The notes beneath the pieces were generated by a model that saw nothing but the letters and a program-made list of their open reading frames with translations, was not told the DNA's origin and made no database searches. The translations under genes and the position numbers were made by a program. From Enterobacteria phage mEp390, in the sequence record NC_019721.1: a DNA stretch of 40,029 bases; one strand, 5' to 3'. Shown here piece after piece: positions 3,979 to 40,029 of this stretch (within the stretch, counting starts at the first letter, position 1; every line of letters begins with the position of its first letter).

Positions 3979-5136
3979 ATGTCTGAACTCGCTCTCATTC
4001 AAAAAGCTATCGAAGAATCCCAGCAGAAAATGTCTCAACTTTTCGATGCGCAGAAAGCAGAAATCGAAAGCACTGGCCAGGTTTCCAAACAGCTGCAGTC
4101 CGACCTGGCAAAAGTGCAGGAAGAACTGACCAAATCCGGTGCGCGTCTCTTCGATCTGGAACAGAAACTGGCTTCCGGTGCTGAAAATCCGGGTGAGAAG
4201 AAATCCTTCTCTGAACGTGCTGCGGAAGAGCTCATCAAGTCATGGGACGGTAAACAGGGCACCTTCGACGCGAAGACGTTTAACAAGTCTCTCGGCAGTG
4301 ACGCTGATTCTGCTGGCTCACTGATCCAGCCGATGCAGATCCCCGGCATCATCATGCCAGGACTGCGCCGTCTGACCATTCGTGACCTGCTGGCGCAGGG
4401 CCGCATCTCCAGCAACGCTCTGGAATACGTCCGTGAAGAGGTGTTTACCAATAACGCCGACGTGGTGGCCGAGAAAGCGCTGAAGCCCGAATCGGATATC
4501 ACCTTCAGTAAGCAAACCGCGAACGTGAAGACGATCGCCCACTGGGTGCAGGCATCGCGTCAGGTTATGGACGATGCGCCAATGCTGCAGTCATACGTCA
4601 ACAACCGCCTCATGTACGGCCTGGCGCTGAAGGAGGAAGGTCAACTGCTGAACGGTGACGGTACCGGGGATAACATCGAAGGTTTGAACAAAGTGGCCAC
4701 CGCTTACGACACCTCGCTGAATGCCACTGGCGACACCCGCGCTGACATTATCGCTCACGCTATTTATCAGGTGACAGAGTCTGAGTTTAGCGCTTCCGGT
4801 ATTGTCCTGAACCCGCGGGACTGGCACAACATCGCGCTGCTGAAAGACAATGAAGGCCGCTATATCTTCGGTGGTCCTCAGGCGTTTACCAGCAACATCA
4901 TGTGGGGCCTGCCAGTGGTTCCGACTAAGGCGCAGGCCGCCGGCACCTTTACGGTGGGCGGTTTCGATATGGCCTCTCAGGTCTGGGATCGCATGAATGC
5001 CACCGTGGAAGTCAGCCGTGACGACCGCGACAACTTCGTGAAAAACATGCTGACCATTCTGTGCGAAGAGCGCCTGGCGCTGGCGCACTATCGCCCGGCG
5101 GCCATCATCAAGGGCACTTTCTCTTCTGGCTCATGA
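3979..5136 (+). CDS. major capsid protein (HK97 fold)
   Basis: 385-aa ORF immediately after protease, followed by a strong intrinsic terminator. Confidence 0.88.
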   Translation: MSELALIQKAIEESQQKMSQLFDAQKAEIESTGQVSKQLQSDLAKVQEELTKSGARLFDLEQKLASGAENPGEKKSFSERAAEELIKSWDGKQGTFDAKTFNKSLGSDADSAGSLIQPMQIPGIIMPGLRRLTIRDLLAQGRISSNALEYVREEVFTNNADVVAEKALKPESDITFSKQTANVKTIAHWVQASRQVMDDAPMLQSYVNNRLMYGLALKEEGQLLNGDGTGDNIEGLNKVATAYDTSLNATGDTRADIIAHAIYQVTESEFSASGIVLNPRDWHNIALLKDNEGRYIFGGPQAFTSNIMWGLPVVPTKAQAAGTFTVGGFDMASQVWDRMNATVEVSRDDRDNFVKNMLTILCEERLALAHYRPAAIIKGTFSSGS

Positions 5137-5169: not shown

Positions 5170-5496
5170 ATGGCGATAGATGTTCTCGATGTAATTGGCC
5201 TCCGCCTGTTCAAACAGCAGATTGAGTTTGAGGAAGACGACAGGGACGAGTTGATCACCCTGTACGCGCAGGCGGCTTTTGACTACTGCATACGCTGGTG
5301 CGATGAACCGGCATGGAAAGTTGCAGCTGATATTCCTGCAGCCGTTAAGGGCGCCGTTCTCCTTGTCTTTGCTGACATGTTTGAACACCGCACCGCGCAA
5401 AGCGAAGTACAGCTATATGAGAACGCTGCCGCCGAACGCATGATGTTCATCCATCGCAACTGGCGCGGTAAATCTGAACCTGAGGAGGGCTCCTGA
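5170..5496 (+). CDS. head-tail connector protein (gp6-like)
   Basis: 108-aa ORF in conserved position after capsid gene. Confidence 0.6.
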   Translation: MAIDVLDVIGLRLFKQQIEFEEDDRDELITLYAQAAFDYCIRWCDEPAWKVAADIPAAVKGAVLLVFADMFEHRTAQSEVQLYENAAAERMMFIHRNWRGKSEPEEGS

Positions 5497-6679: not shown

Positions 6680-7150
6680 ATGACCAGTAAGTATGAAGTC
6701 ACAAAGGGGATGACCTTTGCCGTCTCCGACGCACCAGTAACCGCTGATGATTTTAATTCACAAACTTTCCCGGGGGCTGGCATTACCTGGCTGGAAGCAG
6801 CCTGTGCAACGAAGGAGATCACCTTCACCGGCGGGCAGAAAGGGGATATCGACGTAACCACGCTGTGCTCAACTGAACAGGAGCAAACCAACGGCCTCGC
6901 CGCGCCTGCTGAAATGAGCATTACCCGTAACTGGGTTGGCGATGAAGCAGCACAGGAGGCACTGCAGACCGCTTACGAAAATGACGAACTGCGCGCGCTG
7001 CGCGTGGTATTCCCGTCTGGCAACGGTTTCTACGTGCTGGTGGAGGTACGCCAGAGCTCATGGTCTGCCGCAACATCTTCCGTTGTTGGCGCTACCTATT
7101 CTCTGCGTGTACGCGGCAAACCTAAACGCATCTACGCGTCTGGTTCCTGA
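6680..7150 (+). CDS. major tail protein
   Basis: 156-aa ORF with GGAGAAA RBS, flanked on both sides by intrinsic terminators. Confidence 0.7.
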   Translation: MTSKYEVTKGMTFAVSDAPVTADDFNSQTFPGAGITWLEAACATKEITFTGGQKGDIDVTTLCSTEQEQTNGLAAPAEMSITRNWVGDEAAQEALQTAYENDELRALRVVFPSGNGFYVLVEVRQSSWSAATSSVVGATYSLRVRGKPKRIYASGS

Positions 7151-18976: not shown

Positions 18977-18991
18977 TTGCCTGGAGAAAGT

Positions 18992-20326
18992 ATGCTTTAT
19001 AACACTGGCACCATCGCCATTAACGGAAATACCGCCACTGGAACGGGTACGAACTGGACTGCGCCAGCCAGCCAGGTCCGCGCTGGCCAGACGATTATCG
19101 TCATGTCGAGCCCGGTTCAAATTTTCCAGATCTCAAGCGTGGACAGCTCCACCTCGATGACGGTTACGCCATCTGCATCACCGGCGTTAAGCGGCCAGAA
19201 GTATGGAATTCTTGTGTCGGACATTATCTCGGTTGATGGACTGGCACAGGCTATGTCTCAGCTCATCAAAGAATATGACGAGAACATTGGCGCGTGGGAG
19301 ACGTTCGCCACTACCTCAGCAAACCAGACCATCACCGTTACCATCAACGGAACCTCCGTTAATATTCCAAGTATTGGCGCGCTTGCCAGAAAGGGGGCCA
19401 ACAGCGATATCACCGAGCTTAAAGGGCTCACTACTGCGCTTTCTGTTGCACAGGGCGGGACTGGGGCAAAGACCGAAGCTGACGCTCGCACAAACCTCGG
19501 TTTAGGAAGTGCGGCAACTAAAAATACTGGTGAAGGCGATAATAACGTGCTGGCACCAGGATCATTTGGCGTAGGTTCGAAAAACTTGCCAGTAATTGGC
19601 GACATCTGGGATAAAAGCCAGGGAACTCGCTTCTGCAACGTATCTCCTGCCACGTCAGGAGGACCGGGTATGTATGGTTCAGGTATCAGGTTCTCGGACC
19701 GAAATATTGGGAGTGGGGGCACCCCAGCTGCGCAACAATCCTTTGCCGCCCTGATTCTTAGCGGCAAGGTCATTCAATTTATGGGAATGGCTGATGGTAT
19801 CGATACTGGCTGGATGAAGATTTACCACACAGGCAATACGACTCGGACATCTGATGGCACGTTGAAGGCCGCCTCGCCTATAGTTCAATTGTTCGGGGAT
19901 GGGACATGCCAGTTTAACGATGAATCCGAGGGGTGCGCCGTAACCCGCCTGGATATCGGGGAATACCTGATTGAAGGTTGTACCGGCTTGAATGCAGATG
20001 CAGCATGGGGCGGTATAGATGGCGGTTTTGACATTCCTACTGACCGTAACAAACAGCCACTCATCTGGCTTGATTATATGGTTAATTCTGACGGTTCTGT
20101 GCTGGTTAAAACCTATCACCGCACCCACCCGTCGGCCCCTGAATTTGCCAGAAATGAGCGGGCGGGGTTAGCTGATGGAGACCCGGTTGATATCCCGTCA
20201 GATCAGTTCGTCAGCGTTCGAGTAGAAATGCCTGCTAACAGCATATGGAATCAAAAACAGCTGGCTGCTAAAAAAGCTCTCTATGACGCTCATGAATTAG
20301 ATGCCAACGAAGATAGTGGCTCTTGA
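18992..20326 (+). CDS. tail fibre protein
   Basis: about 444 aa from ATG with GGAGAAAG RBS (track ORF starts at upstream TTG 18977); Gly/Thr/Ala-rich N-terminus typical of fibre proteins. Confidence 0.65.
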   Translation: MLYNTGTIAINGNTATGTGTNWTAPASQVRAGQTIIVMSSPVQIFQISSVDSSTSMTVTPSASPALSGQKYGILVSDIISVDGLAQAMSQLIKEYDENIGAWETFATTSANQTITVTINGTSVNIPSIGALARKGANSDITELKGLTTALSVAQGGTGAKTEADARTNLGLGSAATKNTGEGDNNVLAPGSFGVGSKNLPVIGDIWDKSQGTRFCNVSPATSGGPGMYGSGIRFSDRNIGSGGTPAAQQSFAALILSGKVIQFMGMADGIDTGWMKIYHTGNTTRTSDGTLKAASPIVQLFGDGTCQFNDESEGCAVTRLDIGEYLIEGCTGLNADAAWGGIDGGFDIPTDRNKQPLIWLDYMVNSDGSVLVKTYHRTHPSAPEFARNERAGLADGDPVDIPSDQFVSVRVEMPANSIWNQKQLAAKKALYDAHELDANEDSGS

Positions 20327-21663: not shown

Positions 21664-22674
21664 TTACTGCCCCCCAACCACCGGTACTACAGATATTTTG
21701 CGGTTGTATCTTGCAGTCTGCGAAGCATTTTTGTGGCCTGATATTTCTTGTTTCTCATGCAGCGTACCTTCCAAATCAGATATCCCTTTGGCTTTCAGGT
21801 CATGGAAAGTAAAGTCAAATTCGATCTCAGGGAATTTCTCAGCGGCTAACTTTTTCGCCTTCATCCACTGCGCATTAAAAGCATCTCGTGTATATCTCGA
21901 TCCTGATGGCTGGTGAATAACATACATGCTAACCATTCCTTCTTTGAGAGGTAAGGAATCAGCCAAGGAGATTGCACGCCTTAAGCGATCGGTCCATTTT
22001 TTGATTTGACTCACTGCTGTCTTACTTTGCTGAATCATGATTCCTTCATGAAGAAGCTGCGTTTTTTTTAGATCAAGAATATCCCCCTGTCTAGCGCAGC
22101 ATAGATAGGCAACCTCCATAGCGATTTTTACAGGAATAGTTGCAATACTGTACAGAGCATCATATTCGTTATCAAAAACGTAACGAGTCCTGGCCTTTTC
22201 TTTAAACTGCTTTACCCCTTGGCAAGGGTTCATCTTCACTTTTCCACGCTCATATGCCCACCTGAATACCCTCGACATAAACGCTTTTTCTCGGTTCGCC
22301 TGAACTCTGCTCTTAACCCCCCTCTTATCCATATACTTTCTGATGTGCTCCGGCTTAATGTTTTCTGGTTTCATTTTGCCGAAAACGACATTTACCTTTG
22401 AACCATATTTCCGGTAATCCTTTCTGGTTTCTGTTGCCAGATCATGAAAGTCACCAGAGTTAAAAAACTCTTCGCAAAGAGCATGAAAGTTGGAACCAAC
22501 CTTTATATCGTTGATGAAGTTTTCATACGCTGCCCAGACCTGAGACTTTGTGAGATCGAGGTTGCACAATCTCACAGTTCTCCCGTCTGGCGTTCTGAAC
22601 TCATAAGCAGATTTGCCTCGACGCACGCGGGGCGGCATCCAGTTATCTTCTGGGTTTTTGCGGATTCTGGGCAT
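21664..22674 (-). CDS. int: tyrosine-type site-specific integrase
   Basis: 336-aa ORF with C-terminal HxxR and RY catalytic-region motifs (HDLKAKG, ARYNRK); adjacent to att core. Confidence 0.88.
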   Translation of the reverse strand: MPRIRKNPEDNWMPPRVRRGKSAYEFRTPDGRTVRLCNLDLTKSQVWAAYENFINDIKVGSNFHALCEEFFNSGDFHDLATETRKDYRKYGSKVNVVFGKMKPENIKPEHIRKYMDKRGVKSRVQANREKAFMSRVFRWAYERGKVKMNPCQGVKQFKEKARTRYVFDNEYDALYSIATIPVKIAMEVAYLCCARQGDILDLKKTQLLHEGIMIQQSKTAVSQIKKWTDRLRRAISLADSLPLKEGMVSMYVIHQPSGSRYTRDAFNAQWMKAKKLAAEKFPEIEFDFTFHDLKAKGISDLEGTLHEKQEISGHKNASQTARYNRKISVVPVVGGQ

Positions 22675-23270: not shown

Positions 23271-23579
23271 TTAGGCATGGCGTTTTCTCTCTGCCGGTAA
23301 TGGAGGGATATCCATCCACATGATAACCCTCACAATAACACCTTCATTCCCACGCCACTCGTCAGATTCGCAATCGTAGCAGGATGTAATCGCAACGCCG
23401 TAATCTGTCTGGACCAGGTAAATCCCGTTACTTTCAGGTTTAATTTCTGATGCATCATTCCAGATAGGAATCGGGCCATTGCGGTATATCTCCTGAAGCT
23501 CCCGTGCCATGTGGTAGGCGATGTGCCTGCGCCCAAAATCACGAACAACCTCTTTGAGCCTTTCATGGGAAATTGTCAC
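23271..23579 (-). CDS. hypothetical early protein (DUF551-like)
   Basis: 102-aa ORF, overlaps next gene stop; lambdoid early-region family by recollection. Confidence 0.45.
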   Translation of the reverse strand: MTISHERLKEVVRDFGRRHIAYHMARELQEIYRNGPIPIWNDASEIKPESNGIYLVQTDYGVAITSCYDCESDEWRGNEGVIVRVIMWMDIPPLPAERKRHA

Positions 23580-24505
23580 GGCTTCACCTCCTGCTGCGGT
23601 GCTGCTGCAATCATTGCCTTGTGCATGGCGTCGTATCCGTCTTCCTCTACGCGTGCGGCGGCGTCGATCATTGCTCGTGTCGCATCAACCGGCACCAAAA
23701 CCCAACCATCCGGAATCACCGGAGAGTTGCCACCGGCTTTGATGTGCATACGCGGTTCGCCGTCTTTCGGCTCCGGCCACTGGCGCGCCATGTTCTCTTT
23801 CAGCTTTTCTTCCATCGCTGCTGTGATTTCACCGTCACTGATACCGGCGCGGCGCTGGGCATCCCATAGCAGGAACTGCATATCAGCCCACTCGCTGAGG
23901 TCGTCAGGTTCGGCGGCTGCCTCCAGCGCCTCTTTCGAGAGGTGTTTTAGTGGACCTATGGGGCCAACATCACCGAACGTAGCCTGTGACCACTCAGCAT
24001 GGCGCTGACGGATGAGATTGCGTAACTGCAGCGATGATCCAATTTCTTCGGGCAACTTGTAAGCCGTCGTTACAGGTTCGGCACCCTGAAGCATGGCGGA
24101 TCGGCGTGACAGCAGTCTTTTAGCCTCAATGCTGCCTTCTGCCTCAAGCTCTCCTTCAGCCTCTAAGCCACCCTCAAGGTATTCAACCACATCAGCAATC
24201 CACTGCTCCCACGCACCTGGCACTGCCGGCGCTGGCGGGGCGGTGTACAAGGGGCCGCACTTCCAGCCAGCATCTAGTGCTTTTTTTGCCCCAATGCGAT
24301 TGATTCCTTCGTCTGGATTATCCATATCAACATCTCGCTTACCGTCACGCTCCCACATCCACGCCACAGGCTCCGCTGCGAGCGATGCCAGCGCGATACG
24401 CGCCAGTTCGTGAACCTCCCACTCTTCTGCATTTGCCTGACAGTCGCTTCCCTCAGAATTGAACTGAAGGAGGTTTGCTACGCGTTCTCTGGTAATAGTG
24501 CTCAT
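23576..24505 (-). CDS. early protein with C-terminal DUF550 / MazG-like nucleotide pyrophosphohydrolase-like domain
   Basis: 309-aa ORF; segment HAEWSQATFG...EWADMQFLLWDAQRRAG resembles the dATP/dGTP pyrophosphohydrolase domain family. Confidence 0.45.
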   Translation of the reverse strand: MSTITRERVANLLQFNSEGSDCQANAEEWEVHELARIALASLAAEPVAWMWERDGKRDVDMDNPDEGINRIGAKKALDAGWKCGPLYTAPPAPAVPGAWEQWIADVVEYLEGGLEAEGELEAEGSIEAKRLLSRRSAMLQGAEPVTTAYKLPEEIGSSLQLRNLIRQRHAEWSQATFGDVGPIGPLKHLSKEALEAAAEPDDLSEWADMQFLLWDAQRRAGISDGEITAAMEEKLKENMARQWPEPKDGEPRMHIKAGGNSPVIPDGWVLVPVDATRAMIDAAARVEEDGYDAMHKAMIAAAPQQEVKP

Positions 24506-31972: not shown

Positions 31973-32958
31973 GAGCCATACTGACACCTGAAGTTGCGCC
32001 AATGTCCGGGGTGGTGCTGTTCCGGCCAGGAAATGAGTTGCTGTGGTTGTTTCGTCGCGGCCGGGTGGTTATTGAAACGCCATCTGAAGCTATTCAGCAT
32101 CTGCCATCTGGGCTGATTCCTGAAGCTCACCAGCCACTGACAGATGATGACAGCATGCAGGAACTTTTACTGAACGATCGGGTTATTCTGCGTGCTGGTG
32201 GGCTTAGCAGTCTTGATGCCTGGCTGGAAAGAAAATTCGAATGTCAGTGGCCCCACAATGAATGGCACTCAAAGGACTTTACGGTGATGCGTCACGCACC
32301 CGGAAGCATTCGTCTTTGTTGGGGATGTGATAACCAATTACGTGAACAAACCACTGAAAGACTGGCAGGAATTGCCATGCAGAACCTGTTAAAATGGCTG
32401 CTCGAACGGGTGAATATTATGCTGGGCTTTAGTGCAGACCACACCCTGACGTTACCGGAGTTCTGCTGGTGGATGGTACGTAACGATCTGGCCGACCTTA
32501 TTCCTGAATCAGTGGCCAGTAAAGCCCTCAGGATTAAGCCTGAATCGCACAGCCCAGTAATGCGAGAAAGCGACATTGTTCCGTCATTACCGGCAACTGA
32601 AATCCTCCAGGAGAAAGTTAAGAAGATAGTCTCGGTGAAGGTCGATCCTGAATCACAGGAATCTTTCATGCTGAGGCCAAAGCGTCGCCGCTGGGAGAAC
32701 GATAAGTACACCCGCTGGGTTAAGTCGCAGAAGTGCAGTTGCTGCAATAACCCGGCAGACGATCCCCACCACCTGATAGGCCACGGGCAGGGTGGAATGG
32801 GTACCAAAGCGCACGACCTGTTTGTGATACCGCTGTGCAGAGCGCATCACGATGAGTTGCACGCTGATCCTGTGGCATTTGAAGCGAAGCACGGCGACCA
32901 GTTAACGCTGTTGTTTCGGTTTTTAGATCGTGCGCTGGCAATTGGCGTATTAGCATGA
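31969..32958 (+). CDS. DUF968-like protein with C-terminal Cys/His HNH-like motif
   Basis: 329-aa ORF; C-terminus CSCCNNPADDPHHLIGHGQGG...CRAHHDELH. Confidence 0.55.
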   Translation: MRAILTPEVAPMSGVVLFRPGNELLWLFRRGRVVIETPSEAIQHLPSGLIPEAHQPLTDDDSMQELLLNDRVILRAGGLSSLDAWLERKFECQWPHNEWHSKDFTVMRHAPGSIRLCWGCDNQLREQTTERLAGIAMQNLLKWLLERVNIMLGFSADHTLTLPEFCWWMVRNDLADLIPESVASKALRIKPESHSPVMRESDIVPSLPATEILQEKVKKIVSVKVDPESQESFMLRPKRRRWENDKYTRWVKSQKCSCCNNPADDPHHLIGHGQGGMGTKAHDLFVIPLCRAHHDELHADPVAFEAKHGDQLTLLFRFLDRALAIGVLA

Positions 32959-33338
32959 AAAGTGGAGAAAACATGCGTGATATTCAGATGGTTTTAGAGC
33001 GCTGGGGTGGATGGGCCGCGAGTGATAGTTCCGGAGTCGATTACTCATCAATAGCCGCTGGTTTCAAAGGACTTCTTCCCCCGACAAGCAAATCCCGCCC
33101 GTCATGTACTGATGACGATGCCCTAATTATCGAGGGGTGTTTAGCTCGACTTCAAAAACGCAAGCCCTATGAACATTCGCTTTTGGTTGCACACTATCTC
33201 TATGGCATATCGAAGAGGAAAATAGCGAAAGCACGTAAGAAGGATGAGAAGATAATTAGAATAGAGATACAGATGGCCGAAGGCTTTATCGATGGATGTC
33301 TTTCCATGCTTGACGTTTGTTTAGAAATGGATTGTTAA
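32955..33338 (+). CDS. late-gene antiterminator Q-like protein
   Basis: 127-aa ORF in Q position before the lysis cassette; N-terminus MRDIQMVLERWGGWAA resembles Q-family antiterminators as recalled. Confidence 0.6.
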   Translation: MKSGENMRDIQMVLERWGGWAASDSSGVDYSSIAAGFKGLLPPTSKSRPSCTDDDALIIEGCLARLQKRKPYEHSLLVAHYLYGISKRKIAKARKKDEKIIRIEIQMAEGFIDGCLSMLDVCLEMDC

Positions 33339-33399: not shown

Positions 33400-34218
33400 T
33401 TATTCAGGGCTTGGGAAAGCGTTTGGTGGCATAAATTGTTGGAGGGCATATCTTATTTGAAGTCTAATGTAGTCCTCTGGAAAATCAGATCGATCTAAAG
33501 ATGATATAATTTCTTCTTCGTTAAATATGCCTGCCTTAATCATTTCATTTATCTTTGTCTTCATGCGCATTAAAATGTCTGTTCTGTTTATCTGGCGCGG
33601 GTATCGGATATTCGCGGAAATTTCACGAGAGTTGCTTTCTAACTCTCTAACTTGATGGGCTAAAATGCGTGTGTTGTTTAAAATTTCAGCCAACATGTCT
33701 TTATCAGTGCGAGCTGGAACGACCTCGTTAGGTTGATTATTGCTGAGGGCTCTACTAAATCCTTCTTCAAATTGAGGCCAGTAAGTTTCAAAAGCCTTTG
33801 CCAGGATATCATCAGGTAATTTACTTTCATCAAGTAATGAATTAATTGTTTTGAGGAGTTTAAAAACGCTATCTTTATTTTGAGTTGTATGGTTGAACTG
33901 AGAAAGTGGTGCTTCTAGGTCTTCAGGTTTTAAATCAATCAAAAATGTACACACTCTATTATCAGGAAGCCCTTTTGTTAGTGCTCCCGTTTCGAAAAGA
34001 ATCCACGGTTTATTTTTGTTTTCTTGAGTCAAGAAAACTACGCCTATTGAGACGTCCTTTAAAATTTCATTAATTTCGGAGAACCAGATTGCACCACGGT
34101 CAATATCTTTAGTTGAAATCCAAGGTTGTGCTGCTTGAATTACGCACTTCAACCATCCATTAAATTCTTCAGCAACAGCTTGGCTACGGTTTCCAGACCA
34201 ACTTAAGAATATTTTCAC
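33400..34218 (-). CDS. TIR-like domain protein with C-terminal helical domain of unknown function
   Basis: 272-aa ORF, GTG start with AAAGAGGT RBS; N-terminus KIFLSWSG...DIDRG..W....I.E.L....VVFLT...W.LFETGAL fits TIR beta-alpha pattern; markedly AT-rich. Confidence 0.55.
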   Translation of the reverse strand: MKIFLSWSGNRSQAVAEEFNGWLKCVIQAAQPWISTKDIDRGAIWFSEINEILKDVSIGVVFLTQENKNKPWILFETGALTKGLPDNRVCTFLIDLKPEDLEAPLSQFNHTTQNKDSVFKLLKTINSLLDESKLPDDILAKAFETYWPQFEEGFSRALSNNQPNEVVPARTDKDMLAEILNNTRILAHQVRELESNSREISANIRYPRQINRTDILMRMKTKINEMIKAGIFNEEEIISSLDRSDFPEDYIRLQIRYALQQFMPPNAFPSPE

Positions 34219-34362
34219 AAAGACCTCTTTATTTGGATCATTCAGGATAGGAGGTTAACTGTACAATGGAAAAAACAAAAAATCATTAACGCGGTCCGCA
34301 ATTTTTAGTTTACTCTGTTAAGAGTGGTTTCTTCGCCACGGACTTAAAACGAATCCTAAACC

Positions 34363-34415
34363 TCGCTACGGCGGGGTTTTGTCATTTTTGAGGCTACCTG
34401 CGGGTGGCCTTTTTT
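34363..34415 (+). terminator. tandem hairpins upstream of holin, probable tR'-type late terminator
   Basis: CCTCGC-TACG-GCGGGG-TTTT and GGCTACC-TGCG-GGTGGCC-T6, 45 nt before holin start. Confidence 0.55.
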
Positions 34416-34461
34416 GTTTCCCCTCAATCTGAGAGGACTCACGGCAATAAGAGGGGGCTAA

Positions 34462-34857
34462 ATGTCCGATCCTGTTTCTGGCACTACGGTAGCTGCTGGT
34501 GGTCTGATGGGGGCCAGCATGTTCGGCCTGGCAACCGGCATAGATTACGGTGTGGTGTTTGGCGCATTCGCTGGCGCGGTGTTCTACGTCGCTACGGCGG
34601 TTAATATCAGCCGCCTTAAGCTGGTGGGTTACTTCATCACCTCATTCATCTTCGGCGTTATCGGCGCGCCACTGCTTGGCTCTTATTTCTCCAAATGGAC
34701 GGGGTATAGCGACAGGCCACTTGATGCGCTGGGCGCGGTAATAGTTGCCGCAGTGGCTATTAAGCTGCTGACGTTCGTCAACAGTCAGGATTTGGGTAGC
34801 CTGTTTGGAATTCTCTCTCGCTTACGTGGAGGAGGGGCCAGCAATGGTAACAAGTGA
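34462..34857 (+). CDS. holin
   Basis: 131-aa ORF with several hydrophobic helices, first gene after late terminator. Confidence 0.65.
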   Translation: MSDPVSGTTVAAGGLMGASMFGLATGIDYGVVFGAFAGAVFYVATAVNISRLKLVGYFITSFIFGVIGAPLLGSYFSKWTGYSDRPLDALGAVIVAAVAIKLLTFVNSQDLGSLFGILSRLRGGGASNGNK

Positions 34858-35125
34858 TCCGAGTGCGATGGTGAACGCCGTTATTTGCGGCGTAATCGTC
34901 CTTGTCCTGATGTTCTACCAGCGAGGTGGGGCGAGACATCGCCCACTGATCTCGCTGATGGCTTATTTCACGGTTCTGGTATACGCCAGCGTTCCTTTCC
35001 GTTATCTGTTCGGCCTGTACCATGAATCGCACTGGTTTGTGGTGCTGGTGAACGTCCTGATATGCGCTGCCGTTCTCTGGGCTCGGGGAAACGTGGCGCG
35101 TCTGGTTGATGCACTGAGGCACTAA
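34844..35125 (+). CDS. holin-like membrane protein
   Basis: 93-aa product from ATG after GGAGGAGG RBS; two to three hydrophobic segments. Confidence 0.5.
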
Positions 35126-35751
35126 TGAACCAATCACAATTTCAAAAGGCGGCTGGGCTAAGCGCCGAGTTAGCTGCGCGCTGGTTTCAGCCAGTCACCG
35201 ATGCGATGAAAGAATTCGGCATTACCAAGCCGGTAGACCAGGCCATGTTCATTGCGCAGGTTGGGCATGAATCAGCTGGCTTCACTCTCCTGGTGGAGAG
35301 CTTCAATTACCGGATTGCCGCACTAGTTAACTTCATTCGTGCAGGACGCCTTACCGCAGAACAGGCAAACGCGTTAGGCCGCCGCCCTGAAGAACGGACA
35401 TTACCGATTGAGCGCCAGCGAGCCATTGCGAACCTGGTATACAGCAAACGCATGGGTAACAACGCACCCGGCGACGGCTGGTTATACCGTGGGCGTGGGC
35501 TTATCCAGATTACCGGCCTCAACAACTACCGTGATTGTGGAAACGGCCTGAAAGTTGATCTGGTTAAGCAACCTCAGTTGCTCGCTGAAGACGTATACGC
35601 GGCAAGAAGTGCGGCATGGTTCTTTGTCACTAAGGGCTGCCTTAATCATTCTGGCGACCTGATGCGCGTGACGAAGATTATCAACGGCGGAACGAACGGA
35701 CTGGAAGATCGTCGCGCTCGCTTCGGTCAGGCCAAAACAGTACTGGTATGA
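35125..35751 (+). CDS. endolysin, GH19 chitinase-like lysozyme
   Basis: 208-aa ORF with GH19-like motifs ([20 protein letters not shown]) following holin genes. Confidence 0.8.
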
Positions 35752-35758
35752 GGTTGAT

Positions 35759-36034
35759 ATGGGTTTAGAAACGATAATCGGTATTGCTGCACTTGTTATG
35801 GCTGCTATCGCTGGTGCCTTTGGCATTGGCCATTCACGCGGCACCAGCAAAGCGGAAGCCAAAGCAGACCAGCAGCGCACCGAAGAAAAGGCCGCAGCCA
35901 CTGAAGCAGTAGCCGAACGCCGGGTAGAAGCAACGAAAGAGGCCAGCAATGTACAGCAGACTGTTAACCACATGCCTGATGACGATGTTGATCGCGAGCT
36001 GCGTGACACGTGGAAGCGTCCCGGTGGTGGTTGA
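35759..36034 (+). CDS. i-spanin (Rz-like)
   Basis: 91-aa ORF with N-terminal TM segment and charged helical remainder. Confidence 0.55.
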   Translation: MGLETIIGIAALVMAAIAGAFGIGHSRGTSKAEAKADQQRTEEKAAATEAVAERRVEATKEASNVQQTVNHMPDDDVDRELRDTWKRPGGG

Positions 36035-36176
36035 TACCGCCTGTGACTGGGTAAAGCCAATCTACCTGACCGATCATGATATTGACGTTATGGACCGCCA
36101 GACGAAGAAAGACATCCTGGCGCATAACAAAGCGTGGCAGGCGAACTGCCAGAAAGAAACCAGAGCCCCGCAATAG
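35949..36176 (+). CDS. o-spanin (Rz1-like lipoprotein), overlapping i-spanin in another frame
   Basis: 75-aa ORF with LIASC lipobox and Pro/Cys content; overlapped arrangement typical of Rz/Rz1. Confidence 0.55.
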   Translation: MYSRLLTTCLMTMLIASCVTRGSVPVVVDTACDWVKPIYLTDHDIDVMDRQTKKDILAHNKAWQANCQKETRAPQ

Positions 36177-36204
36177 CGGGGCCTTTAATTACTGAGGAAA
36201 GAGC

Positions 36205-36402
36205 ATGACTGTAGTTCTCACAGCTAAGCAAATCGAAGACCTGGCTAATTTCGCGAAAGAAGACGGCGCACCTCAATACACTATCACCACTGGCACCATC
36301 CCGGAGTTCGAAGCCGATGATGGCGAGATTATCCCTGAATACACAGGGTTGATCGCGTACTCAGATTCGCTGGAGCATGGTGTGTTGCAACTCGACGACT
36401 AG
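36205..36402 (+). CDS. hypothetical small acidic protein
   Basis: 65-aa ORF with GAGGAAAGAG RBS. Confidence 0.4.
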   Translation: MTVVLTAKQIEDLANFAKEDGAPQYTITTGTIPEFEADDGEIIPEYTGLIAYSDSLEHGVLQLDD

Positions 36403-36584
36403 CCATTACAGCAGGCATTCACTGAGTGCCTGTGATAATGTCGAAACACATTAATCAGGTGCGCGAGATGTCGGGTAATACCGATCCGGACGAAGCGTGA
36501 CGCTGCTATAAGCTGGAGGATGGTGCAGACGGCCAATATCTTCTGGCTCAAGGGTTCGAATCCCTTCCTGATTACCACATTAAG

Positions 36585-36611
36585 CCACTGGCATCCGCTG
36601 GTGGTTTTTTT
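36585..36611 (+). terminator. intrinsic terminator
   Basis: 7-bp stem (two G-U pairs) CCACTGG/CTGGTGG followed by T7. Confidence 0.45.
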
Positions 36612-36723
36612 ATGCGCATCGCACGCGCACAACTAAGAAAGTCTTTCAGCTGTGAGCCTGGGCAAACCGTTAACTTTCGGCGGCTTTGCCGTGCGACAGG
36701 CTCACGCCTAAAAGGAAAATTAA

Positions 36724-38181
36724 ATGCAGGTCACTATTGATGGTGTCCCATACGCACCTGCCTGCGAAATTTCATCGCGGATTGGCATTGCAATAACGAC
36801 ACACCAGCGCGCCGACGTTCTGAAAAGAGCGCTCGAACAGCACATGAAGCACCTGCCAGCTGGTGCGCTGGTGGTGGTTGTGGATGATGGTTCAAAACCT
36901 GCAGCGGTAGTTCCCCACGGCGTGCAGCTGCTTCGCCATGAAACATCACTCGGCATTGTTGCTTCGAAGAACGCCAGCCTGTCAGCCCTGATGGATGCCG
37001 GGTGCGAGCATCTTTTTCTGTGGGATGATGATGCCTGGCCTATCGCCGATAACTGGCATCTTCCCTACATCGAATCACCCGAGCCACACCTGGCTTACCA
37101 GTTTCTCGATCTTGCTGGCCGCAATAAGCTGAATGACCTTTCGGTGCTTTACCGTGACGATCAGCATGTGGCGTATACCGGGCAGCGCGGCGTTATGCTG
37201 TATTACCACCGTAGTGCCATCGAGAAGGTGGGCGGATTTGATCCGGTATACGGTCGCGGCATGTACGAACACAGCGACCTTGCCCTGCGCATCCATAACG
37301 CCGGAATGACTACGTGGGCTTACGCTGATGCGGCCGGTTCAGAAAAGCTGATTCATTCTCTTGATGAGCATGAGGCTGTAGAGCGTTCCGTACCGAAACC
37401 AGACCGGCAGGCGCTGGTGGAACGTAACGTTAAAATCCACAACGAACGGCGTGATGCCGGGTTTACCGGTTACGTGGAGTATCGACGGCAGCGCGACGTG
37501 GTTATTACTACTCTGCTGACCAGCCAGCCTGACCCGCAGCGCGGTACGAAAATGACCGCCTCTCCTGACATGCTGGCTAAATGGGCGTCCTCGCTTCGGA
37601 ATTGTGGACGTATTGCGCTGGTGGATGAACTACAGACGGCACCGGCAGACGTTGAGCTGTATCGCGTTCCTGACGTGAAGATGAATGTCTACTTCAGGCG
37701 CTGGCTGCATATCTGGCAGCACCTGCGAGATCACCCTGAATACCGGTTCGTCTGGTGTACTGATGGTACCGATGTCGAAATGCTTCGCGCGCCGTGGGAA
37801 GAAATGGAACCCGGTAAGGTGTATGTCGGTTCTGAACCGAAGACCTACGCCGACTCCTGGGCGAAACAGAATCATCCTGAGCGTATCTATAAGGAATTCA
37901 TTGAAGCGCACCGCGGCGATGTGATGCTGAACGCTGGTCTGCTGGGTGGCACCCGCGCTGATGTAATGGCGTTCGCTCACGGCATCATCCGTCTTTACTA
38001 CCGGATAGAGAGTTATCGTTTCTGGAAGAAAGAACAGGCTGGCGCTGCGGTGGGCGATATGATCGCTTTTGGCATTGTTGCTAAATCGTTTGGCGATCGA
38101 ATTGTCACCGGCCCCCGCATCCACACTATTTTTAAGTCCGATGGTGTCGGTAAAGAGTACGCTTTCTGGCGCCATAAATAA
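36724..38181 (+). CDS. glycosyltransferase family 2-like protein with additional C-terminal domain
   Basis: 485-aa ORF; GT-A signatures IAITTHQRADVLKRALEQ, VVVVDDGS, DDD, and VGGFD...YEHSDLALRIHNAG. Confidence 0.6.
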   Translation: MQVTIDGVPYAPACEISSRIGIAITTHQRADVLKRALEQHMKHLPAGALVVVVDDGSKPAAVVPHGVQLLRHETSLGIVASKNASLSALMDAGCEHLFLWDDDAWPIADNWHLPYIESPEPHLAYQFLDLAGRNKLNDLSVLYRDDQHVAYTGQRGVMLYYHRSAIEKVGGFDPVYGRGMYEHSDLALRIHNAGMTTWAYADAAGSEKLIHSLDEHEAVERSVPKPDRQALVERNVKIHNERRDAGFTGYVEYRRQRDVVITTLLTSQPDPQRGTKMTASPDMLAKWASSLRNCGRIALVDELQTAPADVELYRVPDVKMNVYFRRWLHIWQHLRDHPEYRFVWCTDGTDVEMLRAPWEEMEPGKVYVGSEPKTYADSWAKQNHPERIYKEFIEAHRGDVMLNAGLLGGTRADVMAFAHGIIRLYYRIESYRFWKKEQAGAAVGDMIAFGIVAKSFGDRIVTGPRIHTIFKSDGVGKEYAFWRHK

Positions 38182-38221
38182 TTTCATTATCCTGAAAATC
38201 CTTTAACCGGGAGGCATTGTC

Positions 38222-38734
38222 ATGGCCGCAAGAAAGACGATTGAAGAGAGATTTTGGATAAAGGTTGATAAAAAAGGTGAAGATGATTGTTGGTGCTGGT
38301 GTGCCGCAACAGTGAAGGGCGGTAGCGGAGAAAGAAAGTTAACTTATGGGGTTATTGGTACAGATCGAAATGCCTCTGGTAACCCAAAGGTTCTTTTAGC
38401 CCACCGGGTTTCTTGGGAAATGCATAATGGGCCAATACCGGAAGGTAAGTATATAGACCATATCTGTCACAACACCTTATGTGTGAACCCACATCACCTC
38501 CGACTTGTATCACCAAAGCAAAACGCAGAGAACCAATGTGTTGTTGATTCCCGCTCAACATCTGGATATCGAGGCGTATCGTGGAATAAACAAAAAAATA
38601 AATGGCTTGCTTACTGCAATCATGAAGGAAAGCGTTATCACGCTGGGTTCCATGAAACAGCAGAGTTGGCAGCTGAAGCTGCACGTCGAGCCCGAAACAA
38701 GGTGTTTACCCATAATGATGCAGACAGATTTTAA
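38222..38734 (+). CDS. HNH homing endonuclease with AP2-type DNA-binding domain
   Basis: 170-aa ORF; HNH-like Cys/His region (HICHNTLCVNPHHL) and AP2-like GYRGVSWNKQKNKWLAY...GFHETAELAAEA. Confidence 0.75.
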   Translation: MAARKTIEERFWIKVDKKGEDDCWCWCAATVKGGSGERKLTYGVIGTDRNASGNPKVLLAHRVSWEMHNGPIPEGKYIDHICHNTLCVNPHHLRLVSPKQNAENQCVVDSRSTSGYRGVSWNKQKNKWLAYCNHEGKRYHAGFHETAELAAEAARRARNKVFTHNDADRF

Positions 38735-39305
38735 GTTTGTTGTGGTTGGCCATCACTCTCGCTTAAGCCATGCGCAACGTCTTGCCGCGTTGCTGGATGC
38801 TCATCTGCTTATTGATGACGGTGACCACGGCGCGAACTGGAATCATCGGCGCGCTATCGAGTGGGCAGTTGAGCAGCCTTGCCGTGTAGTGGTATTGGAG
38901 GACGACGCGCTGCCAGTACATGGATTCACCGAAAAGGTAACTGACTGGCTGGCTCGTTTCCCTGACGACATGCTGAGCTTTTATCTCGGCACCGGCCGAC
39001 CACCGCAGTATCAGAAAGAGATAGCCGACTGGCTGATTGTTGCAGATAAGTCACGAGCAGACTTCATCACACTTCAGAGGCTGATACACGGGGTCTGCTA
39101 CAGCATCCCACCTCAGCACCTGAACCGTGTTCTGTCTCGATGGCACAGCAGCAAGCCTGCTGATTATGCCGTTGGTGATGCCTATGGCGGCGCTGTGGTT
39201 TATCCGTGTTACTCGCTGGTGGATCACGCCGACATGCAGACGGTTGAGCGTCATCCTGACAACGAGCCGAGGACAGAACGCCGCCGCGCATGGAGACTGG
39301 CATGA
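38715..39305 (+). CDS. putative GT-A fold glycosyltransferase-like protein (GT25-like)
   Basis: start at ATG (MMQTDFK); pattern FVVVGHHSR...DDGDHG...RVVVLEDDALPVHGF resembles GT25/GT-A cores; weak assignment. Confidence 0.4.
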   Translation: MMQTDFKFVVVGHHSRLSHAQRLAALLDAHLLIDDGDHGANWNHRRAIEWAVEQPCRVVVLEDDALPVHGFTEKVTDWLARFPDDMLSFYLGTGRPPQYQKEIADWLIVADKSRADFITLQRLIHGVCYSIPPQHLNRVLSRWHSSKPADYAVGDAYGGAVVYPCYSLVDHADMQTVERHPDNEPRTERRRAWRLA

Positions 39306-39643
39306 ACAAAGAGCCACGCGTATATGGCAGCCGATGGGATAAGGCCCGTCTGCGTTTCCTGCAGCAGCACCCACTATGTGTGATGTGCGAGCAGCAGGGG
39401 CGCATTACCCCGGCAACGGTGGTTGACCATATCGAGCCCCACAAACTCAAAGATGCGCTTAAGTCAGGTAACCCGCTGGCCATATCTAAAGCACAGCTCC
39501 TGTTCTGGAGTAAAGATAACTGGCAGCCACTGTGCAAAGCACATCATGACTCAACGAAACAGAGAATGGAGAAGAGCGGCGCGGTAATAGGCTGTGATGC
39601 CAACGGCTACCCGCTCGATCCTGCGTCTCACTGGAGCACGTAA
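39302..39643 (+). CDS. HNH endonuclease (packaging-associated, HK97 gp74-like position)
   Basis: start MNKEPRV after GGAGA RBS; Cys/His pairs CVMCEQ...HIEPH...CKAHHD; sits just upstream of terminase if the genome is circularised. Confidence 0.75.
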   Translation: MNKEPRVYGSRWDKARLRFLQQHPLCVMCEQQGRITPATVVDHIEPHKLKDALKSGNPLAISKAQLLFWSKDNWQPLCKAHHDSTKQRMEKSGAVIGCDANGYPLDPASHWST

Positions 39644-39879
39644 TGAAAGACCTCATCATTGAATACCGCGACGGTAAGTTTGTTCAGTTGGCAATTGATG
39701 GCGTAGCGATGAAGACTGTTACCTCTATCCAGTTTTCCCACACAGTAGGAGAAAACGTGCCGACGCTGACCTTTTCAGGGCATGTGTGGCCCGAGCACGG
39801 GAAAGGCGCTCAGAAACTCGAACAGGTTGATAAACAGACGTCCTGGAATGATGAAGTGAAGCGGATAATGAATGAGTGA
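39643..39879 (+). CDS. hypothetical small protein
   Basis: 78-aa ORF translationally coupled to HNH gene (ATGA overlap). Confidence 0.4.
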   Translation: MKDLIIEYRDGKFVQLAIDGVAMKTVTSIQFSHTVGENVPTLTFSGHVWPEHGKGAQKLEQVDKQTSWNDEVKRIMNE

Positions 39880-40029
39880 AATCATTTCAAATGCAATGAA
39901 ATCAAATGAGAACGAATCGCATCAGGGCAGGGGGGGGGATCAAATCTTCAAAACCTTTGCCCCAAATGACCGCCGCCAAAGTTTGATTTTAACGCTAACC
40001 CGATTTTTTTAGTTTTAAGGTGTTGACAT

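Follow-up and report, generated by a model that had tools for sequence, protein, structure and literature searches.

A two-gene glycosyltransferase cassette at the right end of phage mEp390 and its probable role in the glycosylation of virion proteins

We analyzed the genome of Enterobacteria phage mEp390 (NC_019721.1; 40,029 nucleotides, the whole of which is called the window here), which is the complete cos-to-cos sequence of a temperate HK97-like (Hendrixvirinae-type) phage whose structural genes are 92-94% identical to those of mEp506, LMessi, HK542, and ECP1. The right end of this genome carries, in order, lysis genes, a gene designated GT1, an HNH-AP2 endonuclease gene, a gene designated GT2, the packaging HNH endonuclease gene, a small open reading frame (ORF), cos, and terminase (Table 1); GT1 and GT2 together are called the cassette. 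A preliminary description of this DNA had placed two glycosyltransferase genes on either side of an endonuclease, between the lysis genes and the packaging HNH gene. The ORFs, their homologs, and the late-operon layout confirmed this arrangement, and Pfam domains HNH_3 and AP2 and membership in phrog_3593 likewise confirmed the nature of the middle gene. The comparisons presented here make it probable that mEp390 glycosylates its own head and tail proteins by a virion O-glycosylation cassette of the type described for mycobacteriophage Che8. What is new is the probable occurrence of a Che8-type system in phages of Gram-negative hosts, the system itself being already known.

The cassette lies in the late, packaging-linked unit of the genome: its genes read in the same direction without a promoter-like site ahead of them, GT2 overlaps the start of the packaging HNH gene, and the gene order is that of the Che8 right end (glycosyltransferases gp108, gp109, and gp110, then gp111, HNH gp112, cos, and terminase). 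The packaging HNH gene starts 16 nucleotides (nt) before the end of GT2, an overlap that physically ties the glycosyltransferase genes to the packaging and head genes across cos, and this start is 96-98% identical in DNA sequence to the corresponding gene of HK97 and its relatives. Most related loci that reach far enough upstream also contain the lysis ORFs, at varying similarity, and equivalents of these ORFs in HK542 and Fostie are annotated as holin, endolysin, or spanin. A consensus scan of 34000-40029 detected a single promoter-like site, at 34214, and no moron-type independent promoter ahead of GT1. The layout of 34214-34411 is similar to lambda pR'/tR', and comparable pR'/qut features are annotated in HK542 and HK633; by this analogy, the segment may be the start of a Q-antiterminated late transcript that bears the glycosyltransferase genes. 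Because no promoter-like site precedes GT1, hairpins lie upstream of it, and the layout is late, transcription of the cassette as part of an antiterminated late transcript seems likelier than its expression as an independent moron.

The GT1 protein belongs to phrog_1579 (2e-252; PHROGs) and has 1424 relatives (50%-identity representatives), most of which keep the two-domain length of ~450-490 amino acids (aa) down to ~30% identity. Its closest relatives come from Enterobacter, Citrobacter, Salmonella, Pantoea, Klebsiella, and Cronobacter. A tblastn search of the phage collection matched 604 records, 568 of them Mycobacterium phages, with full-length matches of 42-44% identity in cluster F1; Fruitloop gp99, from a mycobacteriophage of this cluster, aligns with GT1 residues 3-485 (42% identity, E 2e-131). 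In an alignment of 80 diverse homologs, the N-domain (~18-250), a predicted GT-A domain of glycosyltransferase family GT2 (not to be confused with the gene GT2), conserves D54-D55, D101-D102-D103, and E182-H183, and the C-domain (~256-485) conserves D270/Q272/R273, D347-x-x-D350, N403/G405/G408/G409, and D445. GT1 itself scores 19.9 bits for Pfam Glycos_transf_2 (PF00535), under the cut-off; this family is matched by 63 of the 80 homologs and Glyco_transf_7C by 53.

The preliminary description had called the C-terminal half of GT1 uncharacterized. This still holds for Pfam, no family of which matched the C-terminal halves of ten diverse homologs, but not for the fold. An AlphaFold model made from the 80 diverse representatives (26 close homologs of 80-91% identity gave a useless pLDDT of 46) predicted for the C-domain, with high confidence, a GT-A-typical strand-helix order in which the conserved acidic motif directly follows strand 340-346, and the C-domain is predicted to be GT-A-like. 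Comparison by hhalign detected no relation among the GT1 N-domain, the GT1 C-domain, and the GT2-protein family, and the cassette therefore appears to carry three different transferase modules.

The GT2 protein aligns with Che8 gp110 over 192 of its 196 residues (34% identity, E 4e-26) and with Fruitloop gp102 (34% identity, E 4e-26), Corndog gp38 (30% identity), and gp82 of Gordonia phage GodonK (40% identity). A translated search of the phage collection returned 696 records, comprising 641 from Mycobacterium phages, 21 from Gordonia phages, and ~30 from enterobacterial phages. The residues of catalytic type are invariant across aligned proteins from these three phage groups, and the invariant positions include N43-H44, E62-D63-D64, Y90-L91-G92, H125, D150, H171, and D173. 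The cut-off of Pfam Glyco_transf_25 (PF01755; 24 bits) is passed by Che8 gp110 (32.3), Fruitloop gp102 (31.5), and Corndog gp38 (24.5), though not by mEp390 GT2 itself, so that the GT25-like character proposed earlier for GT2 was upheld through its homologs, by transitive evidence. The PDB yielded no meaningful match to GT1 or GT2 by sequence or shallow-profile search, and an NCBIfam scan gave sub-threshold hits only. In deeper profile searches, of a kind that the preliminary description had recommended, a GT1 profile hit family GT2 structures, with the N-domain only, and the best PDB matches of the GT2-protein profile, GT25 proteins and mimivirus R655, were weak (E ~0.1).

Natural glycosylation of phage particles has been described for mycobacteriophages in secondary sources (PMC11256854, PMC13445384). 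As summarized there from Freeman et al. 2023 (Cell Host Microbe 31:1216), capsid proteins of Che8 and its relatives bear glycans made by phage glycosyltransferases, and secondary accounts name Che8 gp110 and Corndog gp38 as essential enzymes for capsid glycosylation (PMC11256854, PMC12363180, PMC13445384). The glycosyltransferase genes of Corndog, GodonK, and the Cronobacter phage ENT47670 lie inside the structural gene cluster; in ENT47670, which is a different type of phage, GT1 and GT2 stand directly between the major tail and tape-measure genes. In the literature searched, no report tied the cassette or HK97-like phages (HK542, HK97, and the closest phages) to virion glycosylation, and virion glycosylation was unreported for phages of Gram-negative bacteria. 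The preliminary description had held that a known function of the same genes in related phages would undo its proposal; such a function was found for homologs in distant phages and not in HK97-like phages.

Relatives of GT2 form 1809 clusters at 90% identity (E<=0.001) and are encoded on 559 IMG/VR contigs; among the 120 closest clusters, those with a named source come mostly from Enterobacter, Citrobacter, Salmonella, and Pantoea. The cassette is present in 7 of 5426 complete E. coli genomes. Comparison with HK97-like genomes, another check proposed earlier, showed that HK97, HK022, HK75, HK544, mEpX1, and HK446 are without the cassette and that HK633 has GT2 only, located behind a small - strand ORF (L330, 3091-4091) in a phage whose tail tube protein bears the Ig domain. 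Klebsiella jumbo myoviruses of ~300 kb (FBKp24, Centimanus, KpZh_1, KpSz_1, and similar phages) also have homologs of GT1 and GT2 side by side; in vB_KpM_FBKp24 (L328, 18522-20591), the homologs are ~55% and 48% identical to GT1 and GT2, respectively, and form a + strand island among - strand genes.

Only 4 of the 172 six-frame mEp390 ORFs of >=60 aa encode proteins ending in -GS, and all four are virion genes, for the capsid, connector, tail tube, and tail fiber (Table 1). Capsid and tail tube subunits of mycobacteriophages reportedly bear their O-glycans at the C-terminus, and little evidence for glycosylation is said to have been found in the wider phage population. The capsid and tail proteins end, respectively, in ...NKTGS and ...YSDGS in Che8 and Fruitloop, ...PLVGS and ...IKGDS in Corndog, ...NSGS and ...VTGS in GodonK, and ...GEATS and ...SEPSS in ENT47670. 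Two further consecutive structural proteins of GodonK end in ...GTGS and ...QAGS, making four in all. Among 80 cassette-bearing IMG/VR loci, -GS ends 54 of 55 recognizable capsid proteins and 44 of 48 tail tube proteins, and the capsid families concerned are only 36-44% identical to each other. Proteins that the reference set did not recognize are mostly protease-capsid fusions or proteins of tail-tube size, likewise ending in -GS. In some cassette-bearing loci (L103, L109, L116, L122, and L127), a 644-658-aa protease-capsid fusion replaces the separate genes and ends in ..G[AS]..GS, for example ..NYGAGAGS.

Two additional sets of loci were anchored on the capsid gene instead of the cassette, one on the HK97-type 385-aa family and one on a 403-aa family. 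Without the cassette, 385-aa capsid proteins of mEpX1, HK446, and L232 end in ..TFSAD, compared to ..TFSSGS, and 403-aa capsid proteins end in ..PAPAGA, compared to ..GAGS. Where tail tube proteins of cassette-bearing loci end in ..E[SP]GS, those of the cassette-less relatives continue at precisely that point into a ~90-aa Ig-like domain. Within one tail tube family (6680-7150 in mEp390; L197, L198, L201, L205, L232, L233, L236, and L309-L320), the four-residue tail or the Ig-like domain starts at the same position, after ..LKGKPxxI, and the choice between them tracks the cassette. Thus, besides homology, synteny, and motif conservation, there is an association of tag and cassette. Over ~130 related loci, the capsid protein ended in -GS in 106 of 108 loci with the cassette versus 9 of 23 without it (Fisher p 3e-11), and the tail tube protein in 83 of 85 versus 1 of 12 (Fisher p 9e-12). 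Shared ancestry of the loci and the distance of only 5-8 kb between the cassette and the head and tail genes inflate both tests, and the p values overstate independence.

Table 1. Positions of mEp390 features named in the text, numbered along the window
Feature	Position	Strand	Remarks
Major capsid protein	3979-5136	+	385 aa, HK97 gp5 type; ends ...KGTFSSGS; G,S codons 5128-5133; proposed acceptor
Head-tail connector, gp6-like	5170-5496	+	ends ...EPEEGS; possible further acceptor
Major tail (tube) protein	6680-7150	+	156 aa; ends ...KRIYASGS; G,S codons 7142-7147; proposed acceptor
Tail fiber protein	18977-20326	+	449 aa; ends ...NEDSGS; Pfam Phage_tail_C_2 2e-58; possible further acceptor
Integrase	21664-22674		
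Protein with dATP/dGTP pyrophosphohydrolase domain	23576-24505	-	309 aa; Pfam PF04447, 2.5e-42; early region
Putative antiterminator Q	32955-33338		127 aa; by position
TIR-domain protein	33400-34218	-	272 aa; Pfam TIR_2, 28.7 bits, slightly above cut-off
Late promoter-like site	34214-34241	+	consensus scan only; proposed function
Two terminator-like hairpins after late promoter-like site	34358-34379, 34390-34411	+	consensus scan
Holin	34462-34857	+	ORF; holin-type hydrophobic segments
Second membrane protein of lysis cassette	34805-35125	+	ORF
Endolysin	35125-35751	+	ORF
Rz	35759-36034	+	ORF
Rz1	35949-36176	+	ORF
Two terminator-like hairpins upstream of GT1	36165-36182, 36582-36607	+	consensus scan
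Small ORF upstream of GT1	36205-36402	+	
tRNA-like stretch	36550-36577		28 nt
GT1	36724-38181	+	485 aa; soluble
HNH-AP2 endonuclease	38222-38734	+	170 aa; Pfam HNH_3 4e-18, AP2 4e-8; phrog_3593
GT2	38715-39305	+	196 aa; soluble, GT25-like; phrog_854 1e-75
Packaging HNH endonuclease, gp74-like	39290-39643	+	Pfam HNH; phrog_2323

Besides the relatedness of the loci, several observations weigh against glycosylation of virion proteins by the cassette. HK97, HK022, HK75, and HK544 keep the capsid ending ...SSGS without a cassette, and the connector ending -EEGS was rejected as a further discriminator, being present regardless of the cassette; therefore, the tag alone is insufficient evidence. At least two cassette-bearing loci have Ig-domain tail tubes, two have a capsid protein that does not end in -GS, and two cassette-less loci retain tags. 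L238, a rearranged contig in which the status of the cassette cannot be judged, was dropped from these exceptions. GT2 is only 34% identical to the characterized Che8 gp110, and a Pfam scan of mEp390 GT2 gave no match even at E<=1. The Che8 acceptor residue and the roles of individual genes are taken here from secondary citations. Finally, the Klebsiella jumbo phages carry the pair among non-structural genes.

The most serious rival explanation, which we nevertheless consider unlikely, is that the -GS tails are inherited by linkage and that the enzymes act on another target, such as a host factor, a defence protein, a non-structural phage protein, or a small molecule. The cassette-less capsids and connectors that keep -GS fit this explanation, as does the jumbo-phage context, and the cassette neighbors the head and tail genes, which would lead to co-inheritance. 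However, the tag recurs on unrelated capsid and tail-tube families in three host groups, wherever a GT2 homolog occurs, and within single families the C-terminal tail is the sole systematic allele difference linked to the cassette. Moreover, the homologous Che8 system reportedly acts on the C-termini of the capsid and tail tube proteins. It is this recurrence of the tail across unrelated protein families and three host groups, as read from their sequences, that carries the argument for virion glycosylation.

Lysogenic conversion, in which a host surface glycan (lipopolysaccharide [LPS] core, O-antigen, enterobacterial common antigen, or capsule) is modified with superinfection block or serotype change as the result, is improbable. 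Many temperate enterobacterial phages bear glycosyltransferases for such conversion, the interval between lysis genes and cos is a known moron site, the GT1/GT2 junction gathers moron-like cargo with its own terminators, and glycosyltransferase families GT25 and GT2 include LPS enzymes, judging by Pfam names. By contrast, a survey of the whole mEp390 genome revealed no multi-span membrane ORF besides the holins, and thus no flippase, GtrC, or Wzy-like protein, and both enzymes appear to be soluble, no transmembrane-type hydrophobic segment having been found in GT1 or GT2 by a sequence scan. The glycosyltransferase genes, which no promoter-like site precedes, are embedded in the late operon and overlap with it. 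Orthologs occur in mycobacteriophages and a Gordonia phage, whose hosts are without LPS, and lie inside the structural cluster in three phages; conversion would also leave the C-terminal tag association unexplained. Gtr cassettes (GtrA, GtrB, and GtrC; P22, SfV, SfX, and Hf4s) provide the contrast case (10.1101/2021.06.09.447823). They likewise place glycosyltransferase genes on temperate enterobacterial phages, whereas mEp390 is without a flippase or membrane glycosyltransferase, and its genes are in the late operon, not prophage-expressed, and not beside int/att, the integrase gene being 14 kb away. The absence of a flippase or membrane partner, the distance to the integrase gene, and the late-operon position agree with the earlier view that the arrangement is unusual for an O-antigen conversion cassette, and this cassette is not one.

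We give very little credence to DNA modification, in which the enzymes would glycosylate modified phage bases as a protection against restriction, as in T-even or TET-associated glycosyltransferase (TAGT) systems. Predicted late expression and the adjoining packaging genes agree with this possibility, and 13 of the 80 diverse GT1 homologs match Pfam TAGT weakly (best 2.5e-5). However, mEp390 GT1 has no TAGT match, the similarity is confined to the generic GT-A N-domain, and homologs of the glycosyltransferases are reported to glycosylate proteins. A non-exhaustive scan of the larger early-region ORFs (encoding integrase, dATP/dGTP pyrophosphohydrolase-domain, Ead/Ea22, ParB-like, replication, and DUF968 proteins) found no hydroxymethylase, TET/JBP, or DpdA-type gene and hence no modified-base pathway among them. 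The TAGT lead was pursued and then dropped on these grounds. DNA base glycosyltransferases (T4 alpha/beta-glucosyltransferase; TAGT, Pfam PF20691) resemble the mEp390 enzymes in being phage-encoded, soluble, and expressed in lytic growth, with faint similarity to some GT1 homologs; the T4 base glucosyltransferases have a GT-B fold. Of the three candidate targets named in the preliminary description, virion proteins are thus clearly favored, and host polysaccharide and DNA are disfavored.

GT1 is directly upstream of GT2 in all 82 related loci, and the content of the junction varies. Nothing is inserted in 28 loci, where GT1 and GT2 overlap by 19 nt and the GTG start codon and AAGGAGG ribosome-binding site of GT2 are inside the 3' end of GT1. 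Elsewhere, the junction (38182-38714 in mEp390; L003-L082) holds an HNH-AP2 gene (17 of 82 loci, in two lineages that are ~54% identical to each other) or cargo from more than a dozen unrelated families, including a + strand ORF of 100-126 aa (18 of 82), a - strand ORF of 172-200 aa (4 of 82), and assorted small - strand ORFs (~15 of 82). Ten representative cargo ORFs were compared with PHROGs, and nine of them matched families of unknown function; some cargo supplies a terminator hairpin, a fresh ribosome-binding site, and a new GT2 start. In L225 (4744-5238), the cassette is decaying: GT1 is gone, and GT2 is missing its first ~32 residues. In Fruitloop, gp100 (L083, 4946-5404; 152 aa, Pfam APH phosphotransferase) sits between the two glycosyltransferase homologs, and cargo between these genes is therefore not peculiar to enterobacterial phages.

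The mEp390 HNH-AP2 insert lies precisely between the GT1 stop codon and GT2 codon 7, and its 3' end encodes the new GT2 start and first six codons. Three HNH-AP2 copies are frameshifted (L021-L023), and copies of the mEp390 type are 98-99% identical where the flanking glycosyltransferase genes are only 77-94% identical. This greater conservation implies that the gene is a selfish passenger at a cargo hot spot and not the vehicle of the cluster. From its sequence, we regard it as a free-standing homing-type endonuclease gene, a selfish insert that leaves both glycosyltransferase genes intact. It resembles phage free-standing HNH homing genes in its domain pair, intergenic site, presence/absence polymorphism, decayed copies, and conservation above that of its flanks, and it differs from them in that many cargo genes other than endonucleases also occupy the insertion site of the mEp390-type gene. 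Homing co-converts flanking sequence, and related HNH-AP2 genes are immediately upstream of GT1 in four loci, but the earlier suggestion that the endonuclease mobilized or assembled the cluster is highly improbable, given the 28 direct GT1-GT2 junctions, the unrelated cargo in most other loci, the independent movement indicated by the identities, and the occurrence of the pair without such an endonuclease in mycobacteriophages, the Gordonia phage, ENT47670, and the Klebsiella jumbo phages.

Under glycosylation of mEp390 virion proteins by the cassette, we infer the enzyme activities, acceptor sites, glycan composition, and benefit to be as follows. The two genes would be transcribed late, on a Q-antiterminated transcript shared with the lysis, packaging, head, and tail genes, as the layout suggests, and GT1 and GT2 would act as soluble cytoplasmic enzymes. 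GT2 would initiate by transferring the first sugar from a nucleotide sugar onto the short C-terminal tails of the major capsid and major tail tube proteins, which end in serine (-SGS-COOH), and perhaps onto those of the connector and tail fiber. GT1 would next extend the glycan with more sugars through its two GT-A domains, and the head and tail of new virions would bear short glycans, several hundred in number. The likely benefit, suggested by the analogy to Che8 and by the exchange of an Ig-like domain for the tag on the tail tube, is that the particle surface is masked or altered, for instance as a protection from antibodies or proteases or as an aid to adhesion in the gut.

A broader proposition, on which we are evenly divided, is that a single GT25-like enzyme family recognizes a short C-terminal serine tail (typically -x-G-S-COOH) as a portable glycosylation tag across phages of Actinobacteria and Enterobacteriaceae, and that in HK97-like phages the tag and the tail-tube Ig-like domain are alternative surface decorations that largely exclude each other and serve one ecological role. 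In that case, glycosylated virions would be made by many enterobacterial prophages, and HK97 gp5 would need no change to serve as an acceptor. The swap of glycan tag and Ig-like domain on the tail tube suggests a purpose for both decorations. If mEp390 virions are glycosylated as proposed, the same machinery and acceptor tail would operate in a large group of temperate phages that infect Enterobacter, Citrobacter, Klebsiella, Cronobacter, Salmonella, and some E. coli. This group includes the cultivable K-12 phages HK542 and ECP1, which makes the proposal testable in the best-understood capsid system, that of HK97. Virion glycosylation would also bear on the exposure of gut phages to antibodies and mucus and on the pharmacokinetics of phage therapy, and the two genes could provide a cytoplasmic, tag-directed protein glycosylation tool for E. 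coli.

Several other features of the window were recorded. The 320-nt non-coding gap before GT1 contains a stretch, AAGGGTTCGAATCCCTTCCTGATTACCA, that resembles the 3' end of a tRNA (T-arm, acceptor strand, discriminator base, and CCA), just ahead of the second upstream hairpin. Scanning the region for tRNAs and Rfam families gave weak results or none, and ARAGORN and Rfam found no tRNA at 36550-36607; the stretch may be what remains of a former tRNA gene or of the core of an attachment site. The TIR-domain gene, between the ORF assigned by position as putative antiterminator Q and the late promoter region, lies in DNA of low local GC (0.40) and is a candidate defence or counter-defence moron. 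The dATP/dGTP pyrophosphohydrolase-domain gene is unrelated to the cassette.

Virus GT-A enzymes that glycosylate their own structural proteins in the cytoplasm are also known from giant viruses (PBCV-1 A64R and mimivirus R699/R655), which were among the fold and profile matches obtained here. The resemblance is at the fold level only, and the giant-virus systems have eukaryotic hosts and other acceptor sites and glycans. The closest counterparts are the Che8 (gp108-gp110) and Corndog (gp36-gp38) systems. The mEp390 cassette shares with Che8 the order of glycosyltransferases, HNH, cos, and terminase, and GT2 is homologous to gp110 and gp38. GT1 is homologous to an alternative partner enzyme of cluster F1, Fruitloop gp99, whose gene is two genes upstream of that for the gp110 homolog, gp102, and the capsid and tail tube proteins of both mEp390 and Che8 end in a short serine tail. 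By contrast, mEp390 is an HK97-like phage with a Gram-negative enterobacterial host, and its system is a predicted one. The mEp390-type GT1/GT2 junction is, unlike that of Che8, an insertion hot spot. Moreover, the mEp390 partner is the two-domain GT1, whereas that of Che8 is the glycosyltransferase-methyltransferase gp108 plus gp109, and the glycan of mEp390 should therefore differ from that of Che8.

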